Positions 854-52,804 of a stretch of DNA of 64,000 nt are shown piece after piece (position 1 is the stretch's first letter; the number at the start of each line of letters is the position of its first letter). The translations under genes and the position numbers were made by a program. The DNA comes from a virus, in the IMG/VR virus record IMGVR_UViG_3300025030_000041, positions 1 to 64,000 of that record. The stretch is one strand, 5' to 3'. Below the pieces are notes generated by a model. That model worked only from the letters and a program-made list of their open reading frames with translations. It made no database searches and was not told the DNA's origin.

Positions 854-2296
854 TTATTTTTTATCTTCATTCTTTTTAGTAAATCGGTCAAGTAAAGCTA
901 AAAGTCCGGCACCTTCTGTTGTTTGTTTTAAGCTTTCAAAAAGTCCATTAGTAGCAGCTCCACCTTTTGAACTAAGAATATCTGAAAATTTACCAAGTCC
1001 TGAATGAACATCTCCGCTATTTACAAGAAGTTTAAGGTCAGCTCCATTTAACGCTGTAGCTAATGACTGGTATTGCACTTTGTTTACTTCTCCTGTAATT
1101 TCAACTTCACGGATTTTAATCAAGTAGTTTTGATAGCTTTCATTTTCACCGATTTCTTTTGCTAGAGTCGTTTGTGCAGTTACATTAGCTAACTCCATTT
1201 GTTTCTTTGCTTCTGCTTCTGATAAACCTTTAGCTTTAATTACTTCAGCTTGAGCCTCTCCAACACTTTTTATAGCTTCTGCTTCTTTCTTTTTTGCCTC
1301 AAGTTGGGCTTTAGCATCAGTTTCAATTTTAAACTTATTCGCCTCTGCCTCAATTTCTGTTTGGCGTTTTTTCTGCTCTGTATTGATGATTGCATTTTCT
1401 TTATCTATCTCAGCTTGGCGAATTTGGTTTACTTTTACTACTTCCATTTTTTGCTCTGCTGTTAGTTTTTCAGCTTTTGCAATTTCAGAAAGTGAGGTTT
1501 GCTCGGCTATTCCTCTATTTTTTACAGATTCAGCTTGTGCAATTCCAATTGCTTGTACTGATTTTGCCTGAGCTTCACCTGAGATTCGTTCAGTTTCAGC
1601 AGCAGTTAAAGCAACTTCTTTTCTTGCTTCTAATTCAGCTTGTTCAGCACTTTTAGTATTCTTAGCGACTTCCGTTCTGCTCTCCATATCAATAGCTGAA
1701 ATGCGTTTAGCCATTATTTGATGAATAACTTCTGAACCTTGTGCATCTCTAACATCCATCAATTCAATACTTTTTATTGGTTCTACTCCCCAACTTTTTA
1801 AATCTTCCTTTACTGCATCTGTAAATAATTGTCCAAACATTGAGCGCTCCTCCATTATTTGTTCTAATTTTGATTTTGCCAAAATAGAACGAACTGCTCC
1901 CTGAACAACATTATTTAGTTGAAGTAAAAGGTCTTGAAAAGATGCAACTTTTTCTGCAGCTTTATTTGTATCTGCTATATGAAAGAACGCTTTTACATCT
2001 ACTTCAAACGGTACTCTGTCTTTGTCATACGCTGAATACTTAGGTAAATCAACCCCAAAGTTTGAAACTGGTAATTCCCTAACTTCTACTCCGTATTTGG
2101 GTAGCCATTTAGGAAATTCGTAATAAACGTTTGATCCTTTACCTACACCATATGAAACCGTTTTAGAACTTCTTTGAACAATATGGACTACGTTTGTAGG
2201 AACAATTCTCCTTAATGAGAATATATAAAAAATGATATAAATACCAAATACTGAAGGTATTCCATAAATTAGGGCTGTTAAAAGGTTTATTTGCAT
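854..2296 (-). CDS. Flotillin / SPFH (band-7) domain protein with an N-terminal transmembrane segment and a long Ala/Glu/Lys-rich coiled coil
   Basis: N-terminal hydrophobic helix, an SPFH-like core (VVHIVQRSSKTVSYG...VPFEVDVKAFFHIAD...) and an extended EA/K-rich repeat region typical of flotillin/YqiK. GC content here is visibly higher than in the neighbouring genes. Confidence 0.7.
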   Translation of the reverse strand: MQINLLTALIYGIPSVFGIYIIFYIFSLRRIVPTNVVHIVQRSSKTVSYGVGKGSNVYYEFPKWLPKYGVEVRELPVSNFGVDLPKYSAYDKDRVPFEVDVKAFFHIADTNKAAEKVASFQDLLLQLNNVVQGAVRSILAKSKLEQIMEERSMFGQLFTDAVKEDLKSWGVEPIKSIELMDVRDAQGSEVIHQIMAKRISAIDMESRTEVAKNTKSAEQAELEARKEVALTAAETERISGEAQAKSVQAIGIAQAESVKNRGIAEQTSLSEIAKAEKLTAEQKMEVVKVNQIRQAEIDKENAIINTEQKKRQTEIEAEANKFKIETDAKAQLEAKKKEAEAIKSVGEAQAEVIKAKGLSEAEAKKQMELANVTAQTTLAKEIGENESYQNYLIKIREVEITGEVNKVQYQSLATALNGADLKLLVNSGDVHSGLGKFSDILSSKGGAATNGLFESLKQTTEGAGLLALLDRFTKKNEDKK

Positions 2297-2514: not shown

Positions 2515-3048
2515 TTATACTATATTAGTTTTAAATTTTTTATATAAATTATATACGTCGTTAGTATTTTCAGTATTAATATTAATTAATAATGTATTTA
2601 ATTTAGATTTAGTTGCATATTCTGAAAATATGTCTAATTCACTTTGTAGTAAATCTTTATTCATATTAAATAAAGATTTACCATCTTCTCTATTAATTAA
2701 ATCATTTATATTTGGTAATAATATAATGGAGTCTATATTTATATTATTATCTATTAATTTATTTTCAAATGACAATATATCATTTAAAATATTATAATTT
2801 CTATATATTTTACCATAAACATAGCAGTCGATGTGATTTCTTATTGAGGCAAATTGTAGATTTGTATTTTTATGATAAATAATAAAATCATATAAAAAGT
2901 TTAAATATTTTTTTTCGTTTATTATATATGGTATATTAGGTTTAACTGATCTTATTATATTTATATCATAACCTAATTCCTGTATATAATTTTTTACAAA
3001 TGTATCTTTACCTGATCTATTTGGCCCAGTGATAAATAATCCGTCCAT
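2515..3048 (-). CDS. P-loop deoxynucleoside monophosphate kinase, T4 gp1-like
   Basis: N-terminal MDGLFITGPNRSGKDTF matches the T4 gp1 dNMP kinase P-loop signature (G-x-x-R-S-G-K-D-T); length 177 aa. Confidence 0.5.
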   Translation of the reverse strand: MDGLFITGPNRSGKDTFVKNYIQELGYDINIIRSVKPNIPYIINEKKYLNFLYDFIIYHKNTNLQFASIRNHIDCYVYGKIYRNYNILNDILSFENKLIDNNINIDSIILLPNINDLINREDGKSLFNMNKDLLQSELDIFSEYATKSKLNTLLININTENTNDVYNLYKKFKTNIV

Positions 3049-3117: not shown

Positions 3118-3891
3118 CTATAGTAGTGCCTCATGAATCCATGATGAATTATTTAAATCATTTATATTACAATTACTATCAAATTTACCCAATAAAATTA
3201 ATTTTTCATTATTAGATAAATATAATTTGCTATTTTTACTCAAAATATAATATTGTGAATTAGATATAGATATTTTATACTTTGCATTTTTAATAAAAAT
3301 AGTTACTTCATTTAACATACTATCAGTTAAACTTAAATTTATTTCATCATTATTCAAATTCAAATATGGTAATAACCTCCATGTATCAGGCGCAACATTT
3401 AATGTATTAAATATAAAATCATATATCTTATCTAAATATAAATAGTTTTTAGAATTTAACATAGTACTTAATCTATATGGTATGCTTGAGTTTTCTCTAA
3501 TATATTTTATACACTCTATTGTTCTATTAAATTGGTCGTTATTACGTATACTAAATTCAGAATCATAATCGAATCCATCTAATGGCAAACCGATATAATC
3601 AATATTATTTTTTAATTTATCGAATTTCTCAATTAATTTATACCCATTAGTTATTAAATAATTATTAAAACCTAAACTCTTTGAAAATTCTAAAATCTCA
3701 TCCAAATCTTTTCTTAATGTTACTTCACCGCCCAAAAAACCAATTGTATCAAACCCTAATTCTTTAGCTATCTCAAGATTTTTTTTAACTATATTAATGT
3801 CATCACCATAATCTTTATATTCGCGATAACAAAACTTACATTTAGTATTGCACATACCAGTAAACCTGTAATATAAAATATTAGTATTCAT
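3118..3891 (-). CDS. Radical SAM enzyme
   Basis: CNTKCKFCY = CxxxCxxC cluster near the N-terminus, and a GGE motif (FLGGEVT) for SAM binding. Confidence 0.7.
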   Translation of the reverse strand: MNTNILYYRFTGMCNTKCKFCYREYKDYGDDINIVKKNLEIAKELGFDTIGFLGGEVTLRKDLDEILEFSKSLGFNNYLITNGYKLIEKFDKLKNNIDYIGLPLDGFDYDSEFSIRNNDQFNRTIECIKYIRENSSIPYRLSTMLNSKNYLYLDKIYDFIFNTLNVAPDTWRLLPYLNLNNDEINLSLTDSMLNEVTIFIKNAKYKISISNSQYYILSKNSKLYLSNNEKLILLGKFDSNCNINDLNNSSWIHEALL

Positions 3892-9268: not shown

Positions 9269-10141
9269 CTAAATTTTATTTTTTATTTTAAAATGATTTA
9301 GCATTAAACAAATATCTTTATAGTGTAATTCACATATTTCATTAATATTATCCCTATATCCACCAAATAGAGATACTGATAAAGGAATAGATTTATTTAA
9401 TTCTTTTTCTAAATTATAAAGCCAATCACAAAATATTTCAGTACATTTAAACCAATTATACTCTGTTAGTTTGCCAGCATGCATATTATCAGTGATTATA
9501 GAGTCTGCGCCATGACAATATACAATATAATGTATTTTATCAGTCTTTATTAACTTTGATAATATATCTAATTTATCTTTAAAATTTTGTATATATTTAG
9601 AGTTTTTACCTGTTGGATTTATATTAGCTAGTTTTGGTATATATGTATTTAAAATTGGAAACATTTTTCTGCTATCTTCAATGGAATTGCCATAGTGAGC
9701 ATCTAAATCTATATATGACCCTGATAATTTATAGTTTTTATATATTAAAGTTGACGCAATAACTTGCCCACTAAATACGCAGAAACCCATTCCTTGGTCA
9801 GGCATAGCATGGTGAAATCCGGCACTCGGAGATACCCCTATTATTTCTGGAGTAGTAATACTTGATTCTATTGAACTATATAAACTGCTACACTGGTATT
9901 CAACTGATTCACTAAACGTATTAGACTGATTAAGTATATTATTTGCATAATCTTTTGTATGAGCTAATAGATATGAGTCTTTTTGTAGTTTATTAAATGC
10001 ATTTAGTTTAAATCTTGAGTCTTTGCTTAAATAGTTATCATATAGAGGCTTACATTTAAACATGCTTTTACTTTCAGAATCAAAATTTAAGTAAGCCATT
10101 TTAGGATGATAAAATAAATTAATCACAGAGGATTTACTCAT
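9269..10141 (-). CDS. Deacetylase of the histone-deacetylase / acetoin-utilisation / acetylpolyamine-amidohydrolase superfamily
   Basis: SAGFHHA (His-His dyad), GFCVFS (GFCY-like) and DLDAHYG (Zn-binding D-x-D-x-H) motifs in the canonical order and spacing. Confidence 0.5.
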   Translation of the reverse strand: MSKSSVINLFYHPKMAYLNFDSESKSMFKCKPLYDNYLSKDSRFKLNAFNKLQKDSYLLAHTKDYANNILNQSNTFSESVEYQCSSLYSSIESSITTPEIIGVSPSAGFHHAMPDQGMGFCVFSGQVIASTLIYKNYKLSGSYIDLDAHYGNSIEDSRKMFPILNTYIPKLANINPTGKNSKYIQNFKDKLDILSKLIKTDKIHYIVYCHGADSIITDNMHAGKLTEYNWFKCTEIFCDWLYNLEKELNKSIPLSVSLFGGYRDNINEICELHYKDICLMLNHFKIKNKI

Positions 10142-31109: not shown

Positions 31110-32177
31110 TTATTTATTAAATCGATTAAAGTATTGATATGATATTAAATTGTATTTTGCTTTACCAACAAAATCTTTTAAGGTTTTAGCATTACAATAG
31201 CTCATTGCTGATTTTAAATAATCAACAAAGTTATTAGTCCATCCTTCTACTGTATATTCTACTTTATTATATTTTACTATGCCTTCACTTGTAGTTAATT
31301 TAAGTTTACCCCAAGATTGTTGAACCTCTTTAGTAGACATTCCTCTATATTTTTTATATAGAGGAATTTTATTTTTAAATAAAAAATGTTTAATATCTGG
31401 AAATTTATCAATTTTTATTTTTTTAAATAATAAAGTATCTCCGCATGATTCTATTGATTTATTAAAAATAGAACCTACCATAACGTAGTCGGCTCCTAGA
31501 CATATTACTTTTATAATATCACTGAAATTTTTCATGCCGCCATCTGCCACAATTTTAGCAGGTGAGCTTAACGTACAACTTATATCATAGCATTCTTTTA
31601 TTAAAGATCCCATTGGATAACCAATTGAAACGTTAGAGGACGTCGTGCATGCCCCACCGGACCCGATTCCGCACCGTATATAATCAGCACCAGCTTCGCT
31701 TAATATTCTATAAGTTTCAGGATTAGCGATATTTCCAACCATTAGCATAATAGAATTTCCATACATGTCTTTTGCTAATTTAACAATTTCTAATAACTTG
31801 GACATATGCCCATTTGCCATATCTATTAAAATATATTTATGGTCTATCGTTATTTTATTACGAATATATAAAGTAGTAAACTCATCTAATGAATATGACT
31901 TAAAAATTGGCATAGTAGTCATTAGCTTTGATATATCTATATTGCATCCTCTTGGAATACAAACTGGAATTTTATTCTTAATAAATATATCAATATTATT
32001 TTTATCTATTACAGTATCCATTGGAGCAGCTATAATAGGTAAATAATTTTGACATATTAAATTTAAGTGATTATAATATGGATTAACTTGCTTTCTTGAA
32101 TTTATTTTAGAAATGGCATCTGGCATTATTAAAATGTCATTTAAATCAAATTTTATTTTGTCTATATTAAAATCCAT
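31110..32177 (-). CDS. IMP dehydrogenase / GMP reductase family protein; the size and the absence of a CBS pair favour a GMP reductase-like enzyme
   Basis: PIIAAPMDTV, GADYVMVG and the active-site loop GIGSGGACTT (catalytic Cys) of the IMPDH/GuaC TIM-barrel family. The gene is contiguous, with no intein. Confidence 0.7.
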   Translation of the reverse strand: MDFNIDKIKFDLNDILIMPDAISKINSRKQVNPYYNHLNLICQNYLPIIAAPMDTVIDKNNIDIFIKNKIPVCIPRGCNIDISKLMTTMPIFKSYSLDEFTTLYIRNKITIDHKYILIDMANGHMSKLLEIVKLAKDMYGNSIMLMVGNIANPETYRILSEAGADYIRCGIGSGGACTTSSNVSIGYPMGSLIKECYDISCTLSSPAKIVADGGMKNFSDIIKVICLGADYVMVGSIFNKSIESCGDTLLFKKIKIDKFPDIKHFLFKNKIPLYKKYRGMSTKEVQQSWGKLKLTTSEGIVKYNKVEYTVEGWTNNFVDYLKSAMSYCNAKTLKDFVGKAKYNLISYQYFNRFNK

Positions 32178-32930: not shown

Positions 32931-33440
32931 TTAAATTTTTATGTAAATTAATGATATACCTATTTTATTTAAAGTATCTAACCCTTCTAAATCTCTATAA
33001 AAATCTGAAAATATTACAGCAGTTATTCCAGACTGTATAATTAATTTACTGCATTCTTTACATGGTGATGATGTAATATATAAAATAGAGTCATCTGTCC
33101 TATTTCCATTTTTTGCAGCCTTTAAAATACAGTTAGCTTCAGCATGCAAAGTATACCAGTAGGTATTTCCAGTTTCATCTTCTGTAATATTAGGCATCCC
33201 GCTTGGTGTTCCATTATATCCATCTGAGATAATATTGCCATTCTTTACTAATAATGATCCAACTTTTAGCCGTGTAGCGTATGAGTTGTCTGACCATATT
33301 TTACACATTTGCAAATATCTAATATGTTTATTTAATTGCTTTTCCTCAATACAATTTTCGCAAATTATATTATTTTCAGCAATTAACGATTTTATAGTAT
33401 CGTTACTAGACCTACTGTAAAAATTTTTTATAATGTCCAT
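32931..33440 (-). CDS. dCMP deaminase (cytidine/deoxycytidylate deaminase zinc-binding family)
   Basis: HAEANCI (H-A-E zinc/catalytic motif) and SPCKECSKLI (PCxxC). Confidence 0.75.
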   Translation of the reverse strand: MDIIKNFYSRSSNDTIKSLIAENNIICENCIEEKQLNKHIRYLQMCKIWSDNSYATRLKVGSLLVKNGNIISDGYNGTPSGMPNITEDETGNTYWYTLHAEANCILKAAKNGNRTDDSILYITSSPCKECSKLIIQSGITAVIFSDFYRDLEGLDTLNKIGISLIYIKI

Positions 33441-38191: not shown

Positions 38192-39628
38192 TTATTTATC
38201 TAATTCATTTAGCCTATCAGACAATGCCTTACGCAAAGCTTTATTTTCGAGTCTTTCATTATAAAAATAATTTAATATTTTTCGTGAGACTGAATCAATA
38301 TCCATCCTAAAATATGTATCAAATGCCGTTTTACATATTTTTCTATCTATTAGCTCCTCAATAGATAAATTAAGGCCTTTCCCTAAATATGTATCAGGTG
38401 ATATATTATTGCTACAAATTATGTTCGGATATAGACTAGAAAAGTCCTGACATACTACAGTTTTATAATATCCAGGAATCGGTTCCTTAACGAATGCGCC
38501 TTCATATTTTGGGCCACCTTCATTTTTTTGATACTTTGAGTTATATATTAGTTGTTTTTCTTCTTCTGTTTTTTCAGGTACTTTTAAATTTTGTTCTATG
38601 TATTTTCTAAATATTAGAATTTCACTTATAAATACTGGGCTATTATATTTATTAATATCACATATACTTAAGTTTACCATTTCAAATACAACATCAAGAA
38701 GAAATTTAGAGTCTTCTATTTCTTTTACTAAAATAGAGTCGATAGCATTGTATATTGCAAATTTGCGATAATTTGTTTTATACATTTCTAGTATATTTTC
38801 ATTATCATTTTTAAATTTTTTAACTCCAAGTACTTCTTTTGAAATATAGTCTAATGTATAATTCTCTACAATTTTTAATGGCGACCTGCTTCTAAATAGT
38901 TCAAGGTAGTCTATAACAGCAGTATGAGCTGGAACTAAATATTTTGTTACTCTTTTATTTGTTGCTATATTTTTTGTTGGATTTATTTTTAAATTTTCAC
39001 AGCGTTTCATTAGATATTGCCAGTCAAAATTTAAGAAATTCCATCCAGTTAATAGCGGTATTTTTGGTAGAAATTTATGAAAGAAATACTCTAACATTTC
39101 TATTTCAGTTTTGAACCAAAGATATTTTAAAGTATAGGTTTTTAAATTTGGATTACTTTTTTTAAGATATGTATTCATTTCATTTTCCATATCTTGTTCT
39201 TGACTTCTCAAGTCTTCTCGACACGACAATATATATGCAATATTAGATTCGTTTACTACTGATATTAGAAGAACTTGGTATTTTGCTTCTGATGGTTCTG
39301 GGAATTCATTATTTTCTCCAGTTTCAGTCTCAATATCACAATAATATTTTTTAGGAGTATTAAATTCTGACATTTTATTTTTTTCATCTAGTGTGAGATT
39401 ATTATATAAGAATTCTTCTTGTCTAAAACGTCCTAAATACTCTGTAGGTTTTTTTCTTACATTTTTATTATCCCAACTTTTTAATCCAGTATTTTCTTCA
39501 CAATATTCGTAGTTATATAAATCAGAACTTGGTATATTTTTAATAATAAAGTCTATTTCTTTATTTTTATTAATGTATGATATATACATTTTACTTTTAT
39601 ACTTATTAAATTCAACTCCTACTACCAT
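38192..39628 (-). CDS. 43: Family B DNA polymerase N-terminal portion: N-terminal domain plus 3'-5' exonuclease plus polymerase motif A. It terminates before motifs B and C, so it resembles a split 43A-type gene
   Basis: Exo I YYCDIETE, Exo II NFLNFDWQYL, Exo III YNAIDSILV and pol motif A VCQDFSSLYPNII. The ORF then stops about 75 aa later, with no KxxxNSxYG or YGDTDS motif. Confidence 0.8.
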   Translation of the reverse strand: MVVGVEFNKYKSKMYISYINKNKEIDFIIKNIPSSDLYNYEYCEENTGLKSWDNKNVRKKPTEYLGRFRQEEFLYNNLTLDEKNKMSEFNTPKKYYCDIETETGENNEFPEPSEAKYQVLLISVVNESNIAYILSCREDLRSQEQDMENEMNTYLKKSNPNLKTYTLKYLWFKTEIEMLEYFFHKFLPKIPLLTGWNFLNFDWQYLMKRCENLKINPTKNIATNKRVTKYLVPAHTAVIDYLELFRSRSPLKIVENYTLDYISKEVLGVKKFKNDNENILEMYKTNYRKFAIYNAIDSILVKEIEDSKFLLDVVFEMVNLSICDINKYNSPVFISEILIFRKYIEQNLKVPEKTEEEKQLIYNSKYQKNEGGPKYEGAFVKEPIPGYYKTVVCQDFSSLYPNIICSNNISPDTYLGKGLNLSIEELIDRKICKTAFDTYFRMDIDSVSRKILNYFYNERLENKALRKALSDRLNELDK

Positions 39629-39821
39629 TATTTTCTAAATTAATTAAGGTTTTTAATTTTTCTTTTAATATTATTTTATTTTTTATTTCTTCTATACGAT
39701 TATTAAAATCTGTAGTAACGTCATCTCCATCAAATACTTTATAGTTTTTAGTACTTTTATCAAAAAAAATTTTGCCAATTATATAATTAGGTTCGTCAGT
39801 ATCACCAAAAATAACTTCCAT
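39612..39821 (-). CDS. Hypothetical small protein
   Basis: ORF. Confidence 0.3.
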   Translation of the reverse strand: MEVIFGDTDEPNYIIGKIFFDKSTKNYKVFDGDDVTTDFNNRIEEIKNKIILKEKLKTLINLENNGSRS

Positions 39822-40002
39822 GGATTATTTTAGTATTTTTTAATTTAAGCTTTAATTTTTTATTTGGGCATATTGGTTCAGCCAATATTTTACCGTTAGA
39901 ATTTATTGTAATTTTCCAAGTACTACCCGTTTCATCTCTCATTATAATGCCAGATTTTTCACTTAGTATATGGACATTTCTGTCATTATCTACTGAAAAC
40001 AC
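39802..40002 (-). CDS. Small protein, paralogous to the C-terminus of ORF 40059-40406
   Basis: DETGSTWKITINSNGKILAEPICPNKKLKLKLK versus DEDGDAWSLKISRDGTLKVKPLNESKKTKLKVK. Confidence 0.35.
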   Translation of the reverse strand: MFSVDNDRNVHILSEKSGIIMRDETGSTWKITINSNGKILAEPICPNKKLKLKLKNTKIIHGSYFW

Positions 40003-40058: not shown

Positions 40059-40406
40059 TTAAAAATCCAATAATATCTTTACTTTAAGTTTAGTCTTTTT
40101 AGATTCATTTAATGGTTTAACTTTAAGAGTTCCATCTCTTGAAATTTTTAAACTCCAGGCATCTCCGTCTTCGTCAGCTAAAAGCATTTCACTAGCCGGG
40201 TTATAATGATAGGTTCCTATAGAACTAGGTGTATGACTGGATGTGCTGATTACACTACCTATTGAAGTATTATAAGTAGGAATAACTCTATTGTTATCAC
40301 TTATATAAGTATGGGTACGAGTATCTCCTGAAATTAAAGCACTATCATTTCTAATATGCATATTTGAATTATTATTAGATGAGTCTTTTTTTATTTTTTT
40401 AGCCAT
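40059..40406 (-). CDS. Hypothetical protein; its C-terminal domain is duplicated in the downstream small ORF
   Basis: See the paralog comparison. Confidence 0.4.
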   Translation of the reverse strand: MAKKIKKDSSNNNSNMHIRNDSALISGDTRTHTYISDNNRVIPTYNTSIGSVISTSSHTPSSIGTYHYNPASEMLLADEDGDAWSLKISRDGTLKVKPLNESKKTKLKVKILLDF

Positions 40407-40420
40407 TTTTTATCTTATTT

Positions 40421-40873
40421 TTAAATATGATTTGTACTTCCAAAACCGCCAGTTCTTGTTGTTTTTTGAAATGCAAAACATTCATCATCATTTTTACATT
40501 TAATTAAACTAGGTTTAATATATGGTAAATACATAAACTGAATTATCTTTTCTCCCGGATTAATATCAATACTATATTTACTCGTATTATATAAATGCAA
40601 GTGTACTTCTAAATGATAATCTGGATCAATTAAACACGCTCCGACTTGCAGTCGTTTTTTAGTAGCAACTCCACTTTTATTTACTGCTAATAGACATGTT
40701 CCAATTGGTATATTAAATTTAATTCCAGACGGTATTAGTACGTCTTCTCCTGGTAATAAACTTTTTTGTTGAAAATCGTTTGGAACATACATATCAATTC
40801 CAACAGAGTCTGATGTTCCTATTGATGGGTCTTTCACATCTCTGGTTTTTACATATTTTAATTTCTGATTCAT
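40421..40873 (-). CDS. dUTPase-family protein (trimeric dUTPase / dCTPase-dUTPase)
   Basis: Motif 3-like ACLIDPDY and C-terminal motif 5 RTGGFGSTN. Confidence 0.65.
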   Translation of the reverse strand: MNQKLKYVKTRDVKDPSIGTSDSVGIDMYVPNDFQQKSLLPGEDVLIPSGIKFNIPIGTCLLAVNKSGVATKKRLQVGACLIDPDYHLEVHLHLYNTSKYSIDINPGEKIIQFMYLPYIKPSLIKCKNDDECFAFQKTTRTGGFGSTNHI

Positions 40874-40884
40874 AAGTAGTGCTA

Positions 40885-41322
40885 TTATTTTTTATTTTTA
40901 CATTTTTTACATAAAATAGATACCCAGCGACTGTTTACTACTTCTACGTCAGTCATACTTCCACATTCCATACAAGTAGTATCACAAAGATTTTCGGCCA
41001 TTTCTATAATTGCATTTATTTTTTCATTACCGTATGTATATATCCTTAGTGTTGCATATTTTTCTTTAATATCAGAAATCATGCAACTATCAGTTAACTT
41101 AGATCTTAATTTATAAGCCCATTGATACTTTATTTGAACCACTGAATTTCCAGTAGCTAAATAATGTATAGCTTTTTTTATAAAAAACGGAATCCATCTT
41201 GGCCACATTTCTTTTTCTATTTCTACTATTGCATTTTTTACAATAGGCTTCCATCCCTTGGGAACACTTGGATATGAATACCCTACATGCCTATATTTTT
41301 TATAAAAATTAGAGTCGTTCAT
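40885..41322 (-). CDS. Hypothetical protein with a C-terminal zinc ribbon (CMECGS...CKKCKNKK)
   Basis: ORF. Confidence 0.35.
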   Translation of the reverse strand: MNDSNFYKKYRHVGYSYPSVPKGWKPIVKNAIVEIEKEMWPRWIPFFIKKAIHYLATGNSVVQIKYQWAYKLRSKLTDSCMISDIKEKYATLRIYTYGNEKINAIIEMAENLCDTTCMECGSMTDVEVVNSRWVSILCKKCKNKK

Positions 41323-41962
41323 TTAAATTAAAATGTTTTTTATAAATATGTAAATTTACTATAAAATGGTAATACCATCCAACTTCTATACTTAATTTAT
41401 TAGAGACTAATTCTTGTAATTTAGAGAAACAATACTGGTCATTACAAAAGCCATAGACTAAATCACACGACCTCATTAATACTGACATACATAATTTATT
41501 ATCGATTATAGTAAAATTAATAGAATATGTGCATGGAGTATCTTTACTATATAATTCTATTTCTTTAGCATCATAAATTGATATGGATGCTTTGCGAGTA
41601 TCCTTTTTGTTTTTTAATATATCTACTATTTTATCTAACTGGCTATTCCTGGACCATTGATACCCATAATTTGAGTTTACGTTTCCAGCATCATCCATCA
41701 TATTATACCAAATTTTCGCTTTTTTAGCAATTTCTATGGCCGACGGATCTCCTGATAAATACCATTGCCATTCATATTCAGCGTAATCTTTTTTCCATTT
41801 TCTCCATGGAACTTCTATTAGATTATCTAATGGATTTAATAAATAAAAGCCAGTATTAAATAGGGCCTTTGTATTATCAAAAGATATTCCTTGTGCCATT
41901 ATAGTATTATATAATGTTAAGAACGCGTCAGATGAATTTTTAAATGTATTAGTTTTTATCAT
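41309..41962 (-). CDS. 42: dCMP hydroxymethylase-like enzyme (thymidylate synthase superfamily; T4 gp42-like)
   Basis: EYEWQWYLSG, GNVNSNYGYQWS, TPCTYSINF and MRSCDLVYGFCNDQY match T4 gp42 ELEWYKSKS, GEINSNYGWAIWS, FMCTNTVQY and MRSNDVVFGFRNDYA. FG(F)xND replaces the LGxPFN of true thymidylate synthases, and the length (217 aa) fits the hydroxymethylase rather than TS. Confidence 0.6.
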   Translation of the reverse strand: MIKTNTFKNSSDAFLTLYNTIMAQGISFDNTKALFNTGFYLLNPLDNLIEVPWRKWKKDYAEYEWQWYLSGDPSAIEIAKKAKIWYNMMDDAGNVNSNYGYQWSRNSQLDKIVDILKNKKDTRKASISIYDAKEIELYSKDTPCTYSINFTIIDNKLCMSVLMRSCDLVYGFCNDQYCFSKLQELVSNKLSIEVGWYYHFIVNLHIYKKHFNLNERL

Positions 41963-42527
41963 TATTTAATAAAATAAGTATTTCATCAATATTAAATGGC
42001 CGATATTCTCCTAAAATATTTTTAGCATTATCTATACCTACGTCCATTGATTTTCCTATTCCTTGCAATGCTCCATGGCTATGCCCAAATAAATGAATGC
42101 TTCCTTTATGTGAAGTAGGCCATACTCTATGTGAATAATGACTTAAAAATATATTAATATTATTATGAGTAATTGATAAAGTGTTTTGTACTGAAGAAAA
42201 TAAGTCTTTAGCATAAATAATTCCAGTTTCTATTATGAATTTTTTATTAGTTCGTATGTATGAATCATGATTGCCTAAAATAAAATGTATAGTTTTACAG
42301 TTAATTTGGTCTCTAAATCTTTTAATATTATATGGATGGCCAAATGACCAATCACCTAAAAAATATAAAATATCATTATCTTTTACATTTTCATTTATTT
42401 TTTCTATAAAGAAATTAGTCATTTGAATCTCATCAACGAAATCTCTATATCCAGTTTTCCATTCAGATATAGTCGGGCCAGAAATATTCTTATGATAAGC
42501 GTGTAAGTCGGAAGTAAACCAAATCAT
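41949..42527 (-). CDS. Calcineurin-like metallophosphoesterase
   Basis: FTSDLH, GDW, GNHD and GHSH motifs. Confidence 0.7.
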   Translation of the reverse strand: MIWFTSDLHAYHKNISGPTISEWKTGYRDFVDEIQMTNFFIEKINENVKDNDILYFLGDWSFGHPYNIKRFRDQINCKTIHFILGNHDSYIRTNKKFIIETGIIYAKDLFSSVQNTLSITHNNINIFLSHYSHRVWPTSHKGSIHLFGHSHGALQGIGKSMDVGIDNAKNILGEYRPFNIDEILILLNNDKN

Positions 42528-43033
42528 AGATTGTTTATTATAAAAGTAAGTTGTTCATTTAAATTTTCGGATTCAGTATTTACCTTTAAATATTTACAAT
42601 TAGTTTTTGTTAAATATTCTTCATAAAATGAATTTATGTCTTTTATTTTATTTAAAGGTATTATCTCATCATTATACTCTTTATAATTATCTTTATAACA
42701 AAAAACAATTATTGTTTTATATTCTGCGTATAATTTGTCTAATTCAAAAATAAGGGGTTCATTTATATTTCGGTTAAAACATTTTCCATATACATATTCA
42801 CATATATTATGCCTATCAAATATAATATTTTTAGTTTGAGTTTGTTTAATAAAATCAAACAAAAAAGGAGCATGATTTTCAAAATGGGTTTTATGATTTT
42901 CTATTTTAAATAAAGAGTGTTCTAATGTATTTTTATAATATTTCCAACCTAAAATATTGGATAATTTCTTTGATATTGTGGTTTTTCCAGTATTATCAGC
43001 TCCACAAAAAATTATTAAGTTATAATTTAGCAT
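42524..43033 (-). CDS. P-loop nucleoside/nucleotide kinase-like protein
   Basis: IIFCGADNTGKTT P-loop; small size and DRH-like mid-motif resemble dNK/thymidylate-kinase-like enzymes. Confidence 0.45.
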   Translation of the reverse strand: MLNYNLIIFCGADNTGKTTISKKLSNILGWKYYKNTLEHSLFKIENHKTHFENHAPFLFDFIKQTQTKNIIFDRHNICEYVYGKCFNRNINEPLIFELDKLYAEYKTIIVFCYKDNYKEYNDEIIPLNKIKDINSFYEEYLTKTNCKYLKVNTESENLNEQLTFIINNL

Positions 43034-43344
43034 TCTATATTGTATACTCCTGAGTTTAAATCAATAGTTGTTTTAATTGATGACGACGCTATTCCAGTTG
43101 AAGTAGAAGATGTTCCACACGTAATATTAGGAGTATTCCACCATGGATAAACTGGAGTTGGATTATAAGGGTAATCTCTAATTACAATAGGATTAGCCCA
43201 GTTAATAGTATTATTAGTTTCTATTTTAAAGTTTTTCCATTCATTATCAGGAAGAAGTTTTTTTATAGTATTATAAAATTCTCCTAGATTTATAGATTCT
43301 TCAATTCTTATAATTTTTTCTATTGTATCTAATTGTATTTTCAT
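43027..43344 (-). CDS. Hypothetical protein
   Basis: ORF. Confidence 0.3.
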   Translation of the reverse strand: MKIQLDTIEKIIRIEESINLGEFYNTIKKLLPDNEWKNFKIETNNTINWANPIVIRDYPYNPTPVYPWWNTPNITCGTSSTSTGIASSSIKTTIDLNSGVYNIEC

Positions 43345-43931
43345 GAATTTATTATTTTTTTTAATTCTATTGATTGCTTAATATTTTTATCCTTATCATT
43401 AAATCTTTTTACGTATGATGGATGATAAAGCTTATAAAATTCATAATCTATATTATTTATAGATTTTATAGTTTTTTCAAAAAACTTTATATTTTTATTT
43501 AAAATGTGATTAGTTGTTTCATTTCCTAATAAAAATATTTTTTTAGGATTTACTAACTGTATTTGTTCATATAAAAAGTTACAGCAATTATAAATTTCAG
43601 TTGAATTTAAATTTGAATTATTTGGAGAAGAACATTTACATAAATTTGTAAAAAATACTTTTGTCATTATAGTTTCTATTCCTAATTCACTTATTAGGTA
43701 TTTTCCTAATTTGCAATTAAGCCAATCTAATTTATACTTTTCATAAAATTCATTACTATTTGTAATGGCGGTATAATCGTGTTCTATTCCTGGGTTTTGA
43801 ACAATTATAAAAATTTCTATTTCATTTAAATTGTCATTAAAATAAACATGCGGAAATGAAAAAATACTATTTTGGTTTAGCCTAGGACATTTCTTACATT
43901 TTAATATTTTATTTTGTAAAGTCTTAAGCAT
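43341..43931 (-). CDS. Uracil-DNA glycosylase-like protein (family 4/5 type, with an Fe-S-like CxxC...C pattern)
   Basis: CKKCPRL near the N-terminus, motif-A-like VQNPGIEHD (GE[AG]PG position), C-terminal LYHPSY (HPS motif). Confidence 0.5.
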   Translation of the reverse strand: MLKTLQNKILKCKKCPRLNQNSIFSFPHVYFNDNLNEIEIFIIVQNPGIEHDYTAITNSNEFYEKYKLDWLNCKLGKYLISELGIETIMTKVFFTNLCKCSSPNNSNLNSTEIYNCCNFLYEQIQLVNPKKIFLLGNETTNHILNKNIKFFEKTIKSINNIDYEFYKLYHPSYVKRFNDKDKNIKQSIELKKIINS

Positions 43932-45015
43932 TAATCATAGTTCTATTGTGTTGGGCTTCTAAAATTTGTTTTATAGTTTCATGTAATGAAATAGTAATTT
44001 TCCAATTTGGATAATCTTTTTGAAATTTAGAATAGTCAGTTACATAAAAAATATGGTCGCCTATTCTAGGGTCATCTAAAAAAGTGTAGTTATTCCATTC
44101 TTTTACATATTTAAATGAATTCATTATATTTATAGCTTCTATAATTGAGCATTCATTTCCGCGCCCGCCACCTGCATTATATACTTCGCCTTGTTTAGGA
44201 TTTTGATAAAAATTCCAAAACATATTTATTAAATCATAACTATGTATATTATCTCTAACTCTTTTTCCTCTATCTCCGAAAATATTATAATGATTTCCTG
44301 TTATTACACATTTAGCCAAATATGATAAAAATCCATGTAATTCAGTTCCAGAATGGGCCGGGCCAGTCAAACACCCGCCTCTAAATATACCAATATTCAT
44401 TCCAAAATATTTACCATATTCTTGACACATTATATCGGCTGAAACTTTAGATGCACCAAATACAGAGTGCTTACTGTTATCAATAGACATAGATTCGTCT
44501 ATTCCATTTTTATAAAATTTATGTGATTGGTCTATTTCAAATCTATTTTCTTTCTCGATTAATGGAAGATAATTTGGAGTATCCCCGTATACTTTATTTG
44601 TACTTGTAAATATAAACACTGCATCTTTACTATAAGTTCTAGTTGCCTCTAATAAATATAAAGTTCCTAGTGCATTAACACTAAAATCTTTAATAGGGTC
44701 CGTCGCTGCCCAATCATGTGACGGTTGTGCTGCCGTGTGAACCACTAAATGTATATCTGAATTATATAATTCAAATATCTTATTTAATTGTTCAACATTT
44801 CTAATATCAATATTATAGTGAATAAATTTTTCTGGATATTTCGTTTTTAATTTATTCGTATTCCATAAGGTAGAAGCCGTTTTACCAAAAAATTCTTCAC
44901 GCATATTATTGTCTATTCCAATAATAATATCAAATTTATTAATAAAAAAATCAACAGCCTCTGACCCAATTAATCCGCCTGATCCAGTTACTATACATAC
45001 TTTATTCTTTTTCAT
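43924..45015 (-). CDS. NAD-dependent nucleotide-sugar epimerase/dehydratase (extended SDR)
   Basis: Rossmann VTGSGGLIGS, catalytic S...FGASK (YxxxK-type) and a GGRGNE-like region; length 363 aa. Confidence 0.75.
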   Translation of the reverse strand: MKKNKVCIVTGSGGLIGSEAVDFFINKFDIIIGIDNNMREEFFGKTASTLWNTNKLKTKYPEKFIHYNIDIRNVEQLNKIFELYNSDIHLVVHTAAQPSHDWAATDPIKDFSVNALGTLYLLEATRTYSKDAVFIFTSTNKVYGDTPNYLPLIEKENRFEIDQSHKFYKNGIDESMSIDNSKHSVFGASKVSADIMCQEYGKYFGMNIGIFRGGCLTGPAHSGTELHGFLSYLAKCVITGNHYNIFGDRGKRVRDNIHSYDLINMFWNFYQNPKQGEVYNAGGGRGNECSIIEAINIMNSFKYVKEWNNYTFLDDPRIGDHIFYVTDYSKFQKDYPNWKITISLHETIKQILEAQHNRTMINA

Positions 45016-45183
45016 ATTTTTTATTTTTGTTTTTCAGATGAATACGCTATGAGTGTTGTCGAAATGATAACTAACATTTCGTAATTAGTTGGCTGAACTC
45101 CATACATTAAAAGATTTAGAGTTACATAAATGTCTAGTAGTACTACTAAACTTAAAATAATAGTATTTAATAAATTTTTCATG

Positions 45184-46482
45184 TTATTTGTTTTTAATTA
45201 ATTCTTTTAAATCATTAATAATTATATGAGCTGACTTTTCATATGACTCGTAATCATATCCTATTTTTTTACAAAGACTACTATAGTTAGTATACTCGGT
45301 ATTATTTGTATTTATTATTTCAACTGCTTTTATAATACATTCTGATAATGAGTTAACCTCAATTTCATTAGATTCATTTACTTCACAAAAGAATGGGTAA
45401 TTTGTATTATTTGAATGTTTAAATTTATACCAATAATTATTAACTTTTGGCATAATTGTAATATTTCCTGCTATTAGGGCTTCACAATGAGTTACTCCGC
45501 CATGAACCTCATTTGTAAATAAATTACAACTCACACGTGCTCTATTTATAAAAGTTAAATAATCTTCTCTTGACCAATTTAAATTATTAGGTAGTACCTC
45601 TACTGTATTATTAGATAAAGTATTAATTAAACTTAATTGTTCTTCTGTTACCTTTCTAGTTGGATTAAGCATTATTGCTTTAAATGGTATATTAGTTTTA
45701 GATTTTGCAAGTCCTACTGCTTCAGCGAACTTATGATAATTATTATATCTATTCGCTGAATCTGATATTCTATTACCAAAATAGATAGTTGTTTCATCAA
45801 ATTTCGAAACACTAGAATATTTTAATACTTCTTTAGCCCATACCCCAATATTCCAGCTTGTTGTTTTTTTAATTAAATTTCTATTTTTATAAAATGTATC
45901 ATACGCGTCTAACGATTCTCTTTCATTTTCTTTAGATTGAAATGCTGTTAAATTTGAATTATTAAAGCTTTCCATTTGTCTTTCAAAATATGTAATCTGT
46001 TCTGACACTTTTTTAGATACAGGAGTATCCATAAAATAATTAGTACTAACAATTGGAATATTTAATTTTAATTCATAAAATAAAGTATTCCAGTTTTTAG
46101 TTAATGTATTTTGGTCATTAATCATTACGTCACATTCTTTTAATAAATTATATTGTTTTTTCCAAAATATATAATCAAAATGGTATCTAGTATTAGACGG
46201 CCCAACTGGAGAATCAAATTCTATAAAAGTTATTCTAGAGTGATATTTTTGTTCAAACATACTATAGTATGTCCAATACTCTTTGGATAATCTAATGTCT
46301 GGAATAGCAATTAAAAAAGATATATTACTATCATTTTCTAAAATTTCTGATATTATTCCAATACATATATTCATACATGCGTCTGTACTTAGTATAAAGT
46401 TCTTTCCATCATTATTACTTATTTGAGTAGCATAAAATACTTTCATAACACTTTTTTTGAAACAATATATTTGAAAACTCAT
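45184..46482 (-). CDS. Putative glycosyltransferase (GT-B-like C-terminal half); candidate DNA or surface-glycan sugar transferase
   Basis: C-terminal NEVHGGVTHCEALIAGNITIMPK resembles the E-x7-E / nucleotide-sugar binding region of GT-B enzymes. The call is weak. Confidence 0.35.
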   Translation of the reverse strand: MSFQIYCFKKSVMKVFYATQISNNDGKNFILSTDACMNICIGIISEILENDSNISFLIAIPDIRLSKEYWTYYSMFEQKYHSRITFIEFDSPVGPSNTRYHFDYIFWKKQYNLLKECDVMINDQNTLTKNWNTLFYELKLNIPIVSTNYFMDTPVSKKVSEQITYFERQMESFNNSNLTAFQSKENERESLDAYDTFYKNRNLIKKTTSWNIGVWAKEVLKYSSVSKFDETTIYFGNRISDSANRYNNYHKFAEAVGLAKSKTNIPFKAIMLNPTRKVTEEQLSLINTLSNNTVEVLPNNLNWSREDYLTFINRARVSCNLFTNEVHGGVTHCEALIAGNITIMPKVNNYWYKFKHSNNTNYPFFCEVNESNEIEVNSLSECIIKAVEIINTNNTEYTNYSSLCKKIGYDYESYEKSAHIIINDLKELIKNK

Positions 46483-48217: not shown

Positions 48218-48787
48218 ATGAAATTTAACGACTGGTTTACTACTAGATTAATTGTTAATAAGTTTCCATTACCTTCTGAAATTTTAAAAGCACACTATGA
48301 CTACATTATTAATGTTAGTGATGAATACTCAGGTGAGTGCCATGACACTGCAATGGAAAGAGGTATTAAATATTTTTGGTTTCCAATGAATGAGCGAGTA
48401 GGTGATATGGGTTTAAACAGTTTATATGCAGCATTAAAAATAATATGGCAAGTCGAACAAGAGGGAGCTTCTGTATTACTTCATTGTCATGCTGGAGTTA
48501 ATAGAAGTCCAACAGTGAGAGATGCGTACTATTTTTTACGTACAAAAAAACATAGAGAAGAAATTGTGTTTGATGAAGAAATTGAAGAACGATTAACTGA
48601 ATGGTTAAATTTGGGTAAATCAATTAATGGAAAAAATAACATGCTACTTGAAAACATTAGAAAAGGACACTTACCCTCTATTAATAAAATGGAATCTTTT
48701 TTGAGACATTGTGAAGTTCAATTTAAAAAAGAAGAAACTGATAACAGCGGCGGACTTGACAAGTGTAAAGGTAATGCTGGGATTTAG
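48218..48787 (+). CDS. Dual-specificity / tyrosine protein phosphatase (CX5R)
   Basis: LLHCHAGVNRSPT = HCxxGxxRS P-loop of PTP/DSP enzymes. Confidence 0.65.
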   Translation: MKFNDWFTTRLIVNKFPLPSEILKAHYDYIINVSDEYSGECHDTAMERGIKYFWFPMNERVGDMGLNSLYAALKIIWQVEQEGASVLLHCHAGVNRSPTVRDAYYFLRTKKHREEIVFDEEIEERLTEWLNLGKSINGKNNMLLENIRKGHLPSINKMESFLRHCEVQFKKEETDNSGGLDKCKGNAGI

Positions 48788-52264: not shown

Positions 52265-52804
52265 ATGAGAAATATTAAAGACTTAAAGCCAAATAAAAAT
52301 GGTAGATTTAATCAAGGATTTTTTAATCCAGTAAATAAAGAAAAATATAGTGGGGACTTGTCTAGCCTCCCGATATATAGGTCATCCTGGGAATATAAGT
52401 TTATGCATTTTTGTGATATGAATCCTAATATTGTAAAATGGAGTAGTGAAAAAATTGCAATACCTTATATTTCGCCTATAGATATAATAAAAGAAAATTT
52501 AACTCCAACATACAAAGATATTAAATACCGAAATTATTATGTAGACTTTATAATAAAAGTAAAAACTCCAAATGATACCAATGTTACATGGTTAGTTGAA
52601 ATAAAACCTCTTAAACAAACTAAAAAACCTGAAAATATAAAAGGAAATACTACTACCAAAAAAATCAATAATTATAATAAAGATATGATTACATATTTAG
52701 TAAACAAAGCTAAATTTGAAGCTGCTCTTAAATACGCTAAATCAAAAAATATGAAATTTGGAGTTTTAACAGAAGATAAAACGGGTAATTTCACAATAGG
52801 ATAA
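52265..52804 (+). CDS. 4: Head completion protein, T4 gp4-like
   Basis: YRSSWEYKFMHFCDMN matches T4 gp4 FRSSWELKVMNFLDEH. Confidence 0.55.
   Translation: MRNIKDLKPNKNGRFNQGFFNPVNKEKYSGDLSSLPIYRSSWEYKFMHFCDMNPNIVKWSSEKIAIPYISPIDIIKENLTPTYKDIKYRNYYVDFIIKVKTPNDTNVTWLVEIKPLKQTKKPENIKGNTTTKKINNYNKDMITYLVNKAKFEAALKYAKSKNMKFGVLTEDKTGNFTIG

Follow-up and report, generated by a model that had tools for sequence, protein, structure and literature searches.

A candidate phage operon for glycosylated 5-hydroxymethylcytosine DNA with a phage-tailored sugar

Phage systems of the kind considered here are already known, from T4, from RB69, DLP3 and RL38J1, and from the NEB metavirome clusters. Work on RB69, DLP3 and RL38J1 has revealed a new group of flavin-dependent 5-hydroxy-dCMP synthases, marked by D169N (RB69 gp48, DLP3 gp80 and RL38J1 gp216), and has linked two further positions of thymidylate synthase (TS) homologues to function, with N177D giving cytosine specificity and an acidic residue at the L143 position accompanying formation of a hydroxymethyl product in place of a methyl one (Lee et al., NAR 2026, PMC13326640). 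Some phage DNA glycosyltransferases (GTs) have also been shown experimentally to need a co-encoded sugar epimerase, yielding Hex-, HexNAc- or HexA-5-hydroxymethylcytosine (5hmC) as products (Pyle et al., bioRxiv 10.1101/2023.12.21.572611). Here, we examine a block of overlapping minus-strand genes at positions 40421-46482 of a 64,000-nucleotide stretch of viral DNA (IMG/VR record IMGVR_UViG_3300025030_000041, positions 1 to 64,000; the whole stretch is hereafter the window), in which a TS homologue is joined by a P-loop nucleotide kinase, an extended short-chain dehydrogenase/reductase (SDR) and a GT-B fold protein.

Considering these genes together, we think it probable, with a good deal of doubt remaining, that the block is a phage operon for DNA containing glycosylated 5-hydroxymethylcytosine (hmC) with a phage-tailored sugar, a chemistry that we infer from its genes. 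An earlier note on this DNA had proposed a hydroxymethylase module coupled to an SDR and a GT, implying hmC that carries something other than plain glucose. The conserved association of these genes in diverged phages, described below, supports that proposal, with the modification itself standing as a prediction. The idea is less novel than the note assumed, since such clusters have been described in 2018-2026.

The thymidylate synthase homologue

The 217-aa TS homologue (41309-41962) has its best PDB sequence matches in the CMP hydroxymethylase MilA (2.6e-17) and the T4 dCMP hydroxymethylase (dCH; 4.7e-13). Its motif MRSCDLVYGFCND aligns with MRSNDVVFGFRND of T4 and places an Asp at the TS Asn177 position. 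When aligned with E. coli ThyA, T4 gp42 and RB69 gp48, the protein follows the T4 pattern throughout, with E58, W80, Y94, R126, an Asp at -3 of Cys146, T147, R166, S167, D169, G173, D177, H207 and Y209. The catalytic Cys146 and the nucleotide-binding residues R166, S167, H207 and Y209 are thus present, and the folate-chemistry residues E58, W80, D169 and G173 are retained, as in T4 gp42 and ThyA. The Asp at the L143 position (KDTPC in the window vs SDFMC in T4) occurs in all 120 of the closest database homologues, which also keep the full signature (58-69% identity; many are from marine samples). An AlphaFold 2 (AF2) model of the protein, with a predicted local distance difference test score (pLDDT) of 93, was matched by Foldseek to MilA (template modelling (TM) score 0.92, root-mean-square deviation 1.8 Å), followed by the HY126 dCMP hydroxylase (0.88), ThyA (~0.80) and T4 dCH (0.78).

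The signature is that of a dCMP hydroxymethylase (5-hydroxymethyl-dCMP synthase), an activity that we infer from the active-site residues and the modelled fold. Having the T4 gp42/MilA signature, the protein would be neither a thymidylate synthase nor a 5-hydroxy-dCMP synthase of the D169N type. The earlier note had called it gp42-like as opposed to a bona fide thymidylate synthase, and this assignment is borne out by N177D, by the Asp in place of L143, by the retention of D169, W80 and E58 and by the close fit to MilA. Identity as a canonical ThyA was rejected on the basis of D177 and the Asp at the 143 position, of an ending only 8 residues past Y209, and of NCBIfam ThyA scores that fall far under their cut-offs (e.g. 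69.7 vs 327 bits). The signature of an RB69 gp48-type synthase is likewise absent, the window protein having D169, E58, W80, G173 and Y209 rather than the N, F, V, V, F set. A dCMP methyltransferase making 5-methylcytosine is also unlikely, since position 143 is acidic and a GT is linked to the gene.

The best match to MilA, an enzyme of the mildiomycin pathway, prompted us to consider CMP as the substrate. MilA resembles the window protein in having Asp at both the N177 and L143 positions, and differs in carrying ~100 aa of extra C-terminal region. The preference of the CMP hydroxymethylases MilA and BcmA for ribose has been ascribed to Ala176 and Lys133, which correspond to TS-Ser167 and TS-Arg126 (PMC5175136). 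Both positions hold the TS residues, S167 and R126, in the window protein and in 120/120 homologues, so that the substrate should be dCMP and CMP was set aside.

The family to which this protein belongs is large, with at least 8000 database matches at E<1e-10 to its hydroxymethylase-type form of ~210 aa, including matches in Tara Oceans samples. It is common in phage contigs of 30-80 kb without a nearby GT (loci L021 and L022, on the contigs with P0244 and P0351), one of which has MazG directly downstream, and hmC, whether plain or modified in another way, may therefore be common among environmental phages. The nearest relatives from cultured phages are Bacteroides phage proteins (48.6% identical), which are annotated as dCMP hydroxymethyltransferase by automated annotation and have no GT nearby. 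B. fragilis phages such as BF503P4 (locus L017, OP172672.1) have two different TS-like 'dCMP hydroxymethyltransferases' ~2 kb apart together with a dUTPase, and the second TS-like copy in BF503P4 has an atypical signature (L58, Y80, L173).

The conserved cassette, its glycosyltransferase and its sugar enzyme

Much of the weight of our interpretation is carried by the company that these genes keep elsewhere. Eleven distinct related loci were recovered, and the arrangement holds across L003-L016 and the P0051 contig even though the GT is 38-60% identical among them. In ten of the eleven, the GT has a TS homologue no further than ~3 kb away; the same SDR (49-59% identity) and the kinase family are likewise each found in ten, with the kinase adjoining the GT or the SDR in 10/11. 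Gene order and flanking genes vary among the loci, which argues that the association is kept by selection and does not reflect recent common descent. With 10-11 independent loci diverged to this extent, the linkage between TS homologue, GT, kinase and SDR is far beyond chance.

The TS homologues in these loci are of two types. Seven relatives (L003, L004, L005, L009, L010, L011 and L013) carry the full hydroxylase signature (F58, V/A80, Glu at -3, N169, V/T173 and F209), and the L003 protein is 49% identical to RB69 gp48 (E 2e-81) and 25% identical to the window enzyme. The hydroxymethylase type is found in the window and in its two closest GT relatives, L015 and L016, in which the TS homologues are nonetheless only 26-31% identical to one another across the three. 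The GT subclades track this division, with 57-60% identity within the hydroxymethylase-linked group vs 38-50% to the rest, and the GT appears to have diverged along with its acceptor. The SDRs do not track the split, and that of the window has its nearest relatives among bacterial proteins (63-64%). The cassette may be regarded as modular, with GT, kinase and SDR predicted to be coupled to either of two ways of placing an oxygen handle on C5. It offers a natural experiment, since the same GT, kinase and SDR with either TS type should reveal how acceptor specificity (-CH2OH vs -OH) is encoded. Hydroxylase-type relatives also carry an extra conserved protein of ~424 aa directly after the SDR (L003 13051-14325; a 423-aa gene in the P0051 contig), for which no Pfam match was found and which may represent a second transferase; close by are small glycosylase genes of the HhH-GPD and Pyr_excise-like kinds.

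The GT (45184-46482) could be recognised by structure prediction only, as the 432-aa protein has no match in Pfam (E<=0.01), PHROG, NCBIfam or PADLOC. Its AF2 model, built from an input of 30 family members (pLDDT 89, predicted TM score 0.88), shows a GT-B fold of two Rossmann-like domains. Foldseek against the PDB places MshA (3c4q, 4.6e-12) at the top and GlgM, OtsA and BshA with it (E 1e-10 to 1e-12, TM 0.6-0.66), glycogen synthase being a further match; all are retaining enzymes, and the result upholds the GT-B-like call of the earlier note. MshA 3c4q is also the top match reported for RB69 gp46:47, the presumed first arabinosyltransferase (PMC13326640). Structural neighbours in BFVD are phage GTs, including the 'DNA alpha-GT' of cyanophage S-TIM5 and the SP-15 GTs. 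The family counts at least 154 clusters or homologues at 38-60% identity, nearly all annotated 'hypothetical' and several on contigs of 100-265 kb. Its invariant residues are R238, K277 and E325-VHGGVTHC-E334, the Glu pair of which (E325-x8-E334) is spaced by one residue more than in the classic E-x7-E motif. Since the GT most resembles the retaining enzymes of GT4, GT5 and GT20, it is likely to form an alpha linkage. Translation probably begins at Met13 (46446), giving 420 aa, because the gene called in identical contigs has this length and residues 1-9 model poorly. Taken with its conserved synteny, from which we take the acceptor, the family is a strong candidate DNA glycosyltransferase predicted to act on the 5-hydroxymethyl group of cytosine.

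The SDR (43924-45015) is most similar in the PDB to CDP-tyvelose 2-epimerases (9rl0, 2.3e-33; 1orr, 1.2e-31), at ~32% identity over the full length. It shares with them the extended-SDR architecture, the STNKVYGD block and the Lys of YxxxK, but across its subfamily the catalytic Tyr of this motif is Phe (hsPYGcSK vs hsvFGaSK; HSVFGASK in the window), in alignment with Tyr164 of 1orr and the Tyr of 9rl0. Elsewhere the protein is intact, with GxxGxxG (TGSGGLIGS), the Ser/Thr of the triad (STNKVYGD) and the Lys (FGASK) all kept. The Phe is found in all ten phage loci examined, in the SDR of a 634-kb megaphage and in 119 of the top 120 homologues from the database. At 62-67% identity the window SDR matches chromosomal proteins of Flavobacterium and Sporocytophaga that lie in polysaccharide loci, and a Flavobacterium locus with a homologue is of O-antigen type, with rmlA/C/D, GT2, GT4, Wzx and Wzy. 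The megaphage (locus L018, LR745206.1, a 634-kb uncultured phage; 425039-449928) has its Phe-variant SDR in a co-directional nucleotide-sugar and glycan operon of ~12 genes, among them a GT11, an RmlD-like reductase, a sugar C-methyltransferase, a formyltransferase, a polysaccharide deacetylase and a PseB/CapD-like dehydratase; no TS homologue or member of the window's GT family lies within 12 kb of it. Presence in O-antigen-type loci and in this operon points to a working sugar-pathway enzyme, and we rejected the idea of a decayed pseudo-enzyme because 119/120 homologues have the Phe, among them bacterial genes that lie on the chromosome in polysaccharide loci. As the block has no nucleotidyltransferase, the SDR presumably converts a host nucleoside diphosphate (NDP)-sugar in one step; no further sugar-nucleotide enzymes were found among the remaining open reading frames (ORFs) of the window. 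Our literature search turned up no account of a tyvelose-epimerase-like SDR taking part in the modification of phage DNA. This large Tyr-less subfamily is shared with Flavobacteria, and the product of the SDR would define a new DNA-linked sugar.

The cassette kinase (42524-43033) has, by its family profile, YorR (2axp/3kb2) as its first PDB match (4.9e-9), ahead of thymidylate and deoxynucleoside kinases, and aligns with RB69 gp45 by hhalign (96.8%, E 3e-10). YorR has also been reported as a match for DLP3 gp78 (PMC13326640). From this homology to RB69 gp45, DLP3 gp78 and YorR, and from its linkage, the kinase is predicted to phosphorylate modified dCMP. Neither this protein nor that encoded at 2515-3048 (minus strand) matched T4 gp1 (1dek/1del) in the PDB search. 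The latter had been called a gp1-like kinase in the earlier note, a label we could not sustain, as searches of Pfam, PHROG, NCBIfam and the PDB gave no match to it; its kinship is instead to the cassette kinase, of which it is a remote paralogue (hhalign 87.7%). Beside it, at 3118-3891 (minus strand), lies a prokaryotic-viperin-like radical-SAM protein (PADLOC pVip 'viperins associated with kinases', 9.4e-27; NCBIfam viperin_w_prok 1e-21, below cut-off), and the two genes are a phage-encoded, defence-type pair of pVip and kinase.

Operon layout and the remaining genes

The window is very AT-rich (~25% GC) and comes from a large, roughly T4-like phage. Its marker genes are a T4-type portal protein, gp46/gp47-like SbcCD, an ATP-dependent ligase, PhoH and the N-terminal half of a family-B polymerase. 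The phage is known from metagenomic contigs only. Genes identical to those of the window occur on contigs of up to 265,665 bp; with a genome size of 265 kb or more, the 64 kb amount to about one quarter. Eleven minus-strand ORFs run from 46482 down to at least 40059 with spacings of -14 to +14 nt, forming one compact unit, and the overlap of genes in the block at 40421-46482 is consistent with a single transcription unit. A promoter and terminator scan of the 25% GC window was uninformative (69 sites vs 64 expected), and no tRNAs were found in it. ORFs were scanned against the families of Pfam, PHROG, NCBIfam and PADLOC. The genes named in the earlier note are all present on the minus strand where it had placed them, and family matches agree with it on the dUTPase, the TS fold, the kinase at 42524-43033, the protein like uracil-DNA glycosylase (UDG), the SDR and the dCMP deaminase. 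In the order of transcription, and with the deaminase added, the features are as follows.

45184..46482, minus strand: GT-B fold glycosyltransferase, a 432-aa ORF (structure prediction and Foldseek)
45021..45182, minus strand: small hydrophobic ORF of 53 aa separating the GT from the SDR; identical contigs have it as a called gene
43924..45015, minus strand: extended SDR, CDP-tyvelose-2-epimerase-like (PF01370 5.6e-31)
43341..43931, minus strand: UDG-superfamily (family-4-like) protein (PF03167 2.4e-12)
43027..43344, minus strand: 105-aa protein overlapping both of its neighbours, read as an ORF
42524..43033, minus strand: Tmk/YorR-like P-loop nucleotide kinase (phrog_761 9e-15)
41949..42527, minus strand: calcineurin-like metallophosphoesterase (PF00149 1.3e-5; phrog_547 7e-38)
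41309..41962, minus strand: enzyme of the thymidylate synthase fold, 217 aa (PF00303 7e-25)
40885..41322, minus strand: basic 145-aa protein with a C-terminal CxxC...CxxC zinc-ribbon-like motif, read from the sequence
40421..40873, minus strand: trimeric-type dUTPase, divergent (PF00692 6e-14; phrog_135 1e-28)
32931..33440, minus strand: dCMP deaminase, an accessory enzyme of the pyrimidine pool, 7 kb downstream and outside the block (phrog_174 3.2e-42)

Several of these genes are not shared with the related loci. No homologue of the 53-aa ORF was found there, and its membership of the cassette is uncertain. Three small ORFs of the unit match nothing in the family scans, among them the 105-aa and 145-aa proteins (Pfam, PHROG and PADLOC), and in the related loci the former has no homologue and the latter is not conserved; the metallophosphoesterase was not found in the related loci.

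The UDG-like protein has family-4 UDGs as its PDB matches (4zbx, 1l9g and 1ui0), and its NCBIfam scores are well below cut-off (NF040953 3e-16; 59 and 55 bits vs cut-offs of 250 and 125). Motif A reads QNPG instead of GE(A/G)PG, with an Asn typical of MUG and SMUG enzymes, and both motif B (HPSY) and the Cys positions of a 4Fe-4S cluster are present, the Cys ligands not being conserved in L016. Asn46, Gly48, TN..K and HP are invariant among homologues, which adjoin the GT, the SDR or the kinase in L007, L011/12, L015 and L016; in many cases the stop codon of one gene overlaps the start codon of the next. The gp315 protein of Bacillus phage G (locus L023, NC_023719 230927-231922) is annotated 'thymidylate kinase' and proves to be a fusion of a cassette-type kinase (residues 3-160, 97.2%) with a UDG-like domain (172-314, 98.1%), which suggests that the two proteins are functionally linked. 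What this link might be is a matter for speculation: the UDG-like protein could sanitise U or 5-hydroxymethyluracil (5hmU), a role we raise because the phage deaminase could produce 5-hydroxymethyl-dUMP, or it could serve as a base-flipping partner.

The dUTPase scores 52 bits against PF00692 (cut-off 22) and 74 bits against TIGR00576, under the 102.55-bit equivalog cut-off. Its PDB matches are dUTPases (~1e-11), and it keeps motif III (IDPDY) and motif V (GGFGST) and has KSG instead of RSS in motif II. It is of the beta-barrel trimeric type and does not have the all-alpha MazG/dimeric-dUTPase fold of T4 gp56. The gp56-like dCTPase role that the earlier note thought plausible finds no support, and we predict an ordinary though divergent trimeric dUTPase that would exclude dUTP. 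A dUTPase_2 gene lies beside the cassette in L015 and L016, and a dCMP deaminase also accompanies it in L003, L015, the P0051 contig and phage G.

Other genes of the window deserve brief mention. Directly downstream of the dUTPase, before the polymerase gene, are two small paralogous proteins (40059-40406 and 39802-40002, both minus strand) with a common '...W.I.I..+G.L...P' core. The polymerase gene itself (38192-39628, minus strand) is a 478-aa ORF that corresponds to no more than the N-terminal half of a family-B enzyme (it spans positions 63-492 of the 856 in the PHROG profile), and the polymerase appears to be split. A GMP reductase/IMP dehydrogenase-like gene at 31110-32177 (minus strand; NF003470 2.3e-35, below cut-off; phrog_9582 2.5e-51) is a purine-pool auxiliary on the same strand as the pyrimidine genes. 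Further afield are four unusual accessory genes, for a histone-deacetylase-domain protein (9269-10141, minus strand; PF00850 5e-15), an SPFH/Band-7 protein (854-2296, minus strand), a dual-specificity phosphatase (48218-48787, plus strand; PF00782 2e-12) and a TnsA-like endonuclease (52265-52804, plus strand; PF08722 1e-17).

Proposed pathway, alternatives and known systems

The pathway that we propose would begin with the 217-aa TS homologue converting dCMP to 5-hydroxymethyl-dCMP with methylene-tetrahydrofolate, as its active-site signature and fold suggest. The Tmk/YorR-like kinase would then drive the modified nucleotide toward the triphosphate, to be incorporated by the phage polymerase. 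The SDR is expected, from its family and its bacterial and megaphage contexts, to turn an NDP-sugar of the host, through a single reaction that would most simply be an epimerisation, into a donor that the host does not supply. The GT-B enzyme, whose fold rests on modelling and whose acceptor is read from synteny, would move this sugar onto the hydroxymethyl oxygen, probably retaining configuration. The dUTPase and the UDG-like protein may meanwhile keep uracil, and possibly 5-hydroxymethyluracil arising from the phage dCMP deaminase, out of the DNA. The expected outcome is DNA that would resist restriction and CRISPR nucleases.

A number of observations weigh against this pathway and need to be set beside it. 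The SDR lacks the Tyr of YxxxK, so that 'epimerase/dehydratase' is a family label for it. The GT found nothing by tblastn against 50,697 phage records, gave hhalign probabilities of <1% against RB69 gp46, RB69 gp47 and the alpha-glucosyltransferase (AGT) of phage G, and has a neutral isoelectric point. Among the ORFs of the 64-kb window, our searches found no MazG/gp56-type dCTPase, dUTPase_2, gp1-type dNMP kinase or ThyA/ThyX, nor any cytosine-specific nuclease, and from about a quarter of a genome complete replacement of cytosine cannot be claimed. Finally, for RB69 and DLP3 the first glycosyltransfer was not reconstituted on DNA, and whether it takes place at the level of the mononucleotide or of DNA was left unresolved (PMC13326640).

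This last point leads to an alternative in which the sugar is added before replication, with the GT acting on 5-hydroxymethyl-dCMP, the kinase dedicated to the glycosyl-dNMP and a sugar-bearing dNTP polymerised. The kinase accompanies the GT in 10/11 related loci and in RB69, DLP3 and RL38J1, a pairing that fits mononucleotide glycosylation and is no proof of it. In addition, the gp1-type kinase of RB69 already handles 5-hydroxy-dCMP, which leaves gp45 without a role, and first-step glycosylation went undetected on 5-hydroxycytosine (5hoC) DNA (PMC13326640); the neutral isoelectric point of the GT points the same way. However, all characterised phage DNA glycosyltransferases (T4 alpha- and beta-GT, DLP3 gp76/77 and the enzymes of Pyle et al.) work on DNA, the polymerase would have to accept a glycosylated dNTP, and with no other dNMP kinase seen in the window the cassette kinase may simply be an hm-dCMP kinase. 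We regard this route as unlikely. Slightly less likely still is a fuller version, in which the mononucleotide pathway (with hydroxylation of dCMP in place of hydroxymethylation in relatives) is combined with an as yet undescribed NDP-sugar conversion by the Tyr-less SDR and with a UDG-fold protein policing the DNA for unmodified or deaminated pyrimidines; it would represent the first case of pre-replicative DNA base glycosylation. If instead the TS homologue made 5-hydroxy-dCMP, as in RB69, the DNA would contain O-glycosylated 5-hydroxycytosine. Seven of ten sequenced relatives do pair this GT family with D169N-type enzymes, the one in L003 being 49% identical to RB69 gp48, and the HY126 dCMP hydroxylase ranks second in Foldseek. 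Against this, the window keeps E58, W80, D169, G173 and Y209 where the hydroxylase class has F, V, N, V and F, the 120 closest TS homologues do likewise, and identity to the L003 enzyme is low; of the possibilities we have graded, this is the one we hold to be least probable.

Two further alternatives, each of which we consider improbable and to much the same degree, concern the sugar side of the operon. The nucleotide and sugar genes could be unrelated neighbours, the TS homologue serving plain hmC or pyrimidine supply and the GT and SDR having as their target a glycan of the host surface, a lipid carrier or a protein of the virion. The closest homologues of the SDR do lie in bacterial polysaccharide loci, the same SDR sits in the glycan-type operon of the 634-kb phage with no TS homologue, and the GT has no detectable sequence kinship to known DNA GTs. 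Yet the GT stands beside a cytosine-type TS homologue in 10/11 loci that differ in gene content, order and phage backbone, its subclades track the TS type, and the layout mirrors that of experimentally studied clusters. The SDR might, on the other hand, not make the donor at all, acting instead after transfer by oxidising or epimerising the sugar on DNA, or serving as an NAD- or NDP-sugar-binding partner of the GT. Every member examined has Phe for the YxxxK Tyr, and strict dependence of GTs on a co-expressed 'epimerase' is known, with a mechanism that was presumed (bioRxiv 10.1101/2023.12.21.572611). The Phe variant is nevertheless a large and strongly conserved subfamily, as its identity between phage and Flavobacterium attests. 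Atypical SDRs with Lys alone as the base are known, which also counts against such a role. With GxxGxxG, the STN Thr and the Lys intact, and with a setting in classical nucleotide-sugar pathways, a soluble NDP-sugar substrate is the simplest reading.

Sugar-decorated cytosines decide phage survival against restriction enzymes, CRISPR nucleases and modification-dependent defences, and sugar-modifying phage systems are also a source of enzymes for epigenetic sequencing chemistry. The cassette described here additionally bears on the question raised by RB69 and DLP3, namely whether the first sugar goes onto the nucleotide or onto DNA.

Among cultured phages, a similar set of genes is found within 10 kb in Bacillus phage G (gp309-gp319), which has a hydroxymethylase-type TS homologue (gp319), a dCMP deaminase (gp317), the kinase with its UDG domain (gp315), a DNA GT and nucleotide-sugar genes. 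Unlike the window, phage G has an AGT-family (PF11440) alpha-glucosyltransferase as its GT (gp313), and where the window has the SDR it has genes for a G1P thymidylyltransferase and a HAD hydrolase. This suggests that phage G, with its genome of 497 kb, makes glycosylated hmC; no report on its DNA chemistry was found in the literature. T4 likewise shares with the window the TS active-site signature of gp42, the GT-B fold of its alpha- and beta-glucosyltransferases, and a dCMP deaminase and dUTP control in the genome. The window enzyme is only 26% identical to gp42, however, and its GT is unrelated in sequence to AGT (PF11440) and to the beta-glucosyltransferase. T4 also uses host UDP-glucose directly and has no SDR, and its gp56 dCTPase and gp1 kinase are without counterpart in the window.

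The cytosine C5-O-glycosylation clusters of RB69, DLP3 and RL38J1 (PMC13326640) share with the window an adjacent N177D TS homologue, a homologous Tmk/YorR-like kinase, an MshA-like GT-B enzyme and phage genes supplying an unusual NDP-sugar. In the window, by contrast, the TS homologue is of the hydroxymethylase type (D169, W80, E58) and not a flavin-dependent D169N hydroxylase, the GT is without detectable sequence similarity to RB69 gp46:47, and the module includes a UDG-like protein. Sugar supply differs too, with a single tyvelose-epimerase-like SDR in place of the set of arabinose-5-P isomerase, kinase and nucleotidyltransferase or the UDP-galactopyranose mutase. The Subclass II 'GT + sugar epimerase' clusters of Pyle et al. 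resemble the window in pairing a GT with an adjacent epimerase that tailors the host nucleotide-sugar pool, but their GTs are of the GT-A fold and modify 5hmC that a methyltransferase and a TET-like dioxygenase produce once the DNA has been replicated, whereas the window GT has a GT-B fold and its hmC is predicted to be made before replication by the TS homologue. Set against these known systems, the novelty lies in the GT family and its partnership with a Tyr-less tyvelose-epimerase-like SDR, in the UDG-like component and its fusion to the kinase, and in the evidence for one cassette serving both hmC- and hydroxycytosine (hoC)-type precursors.

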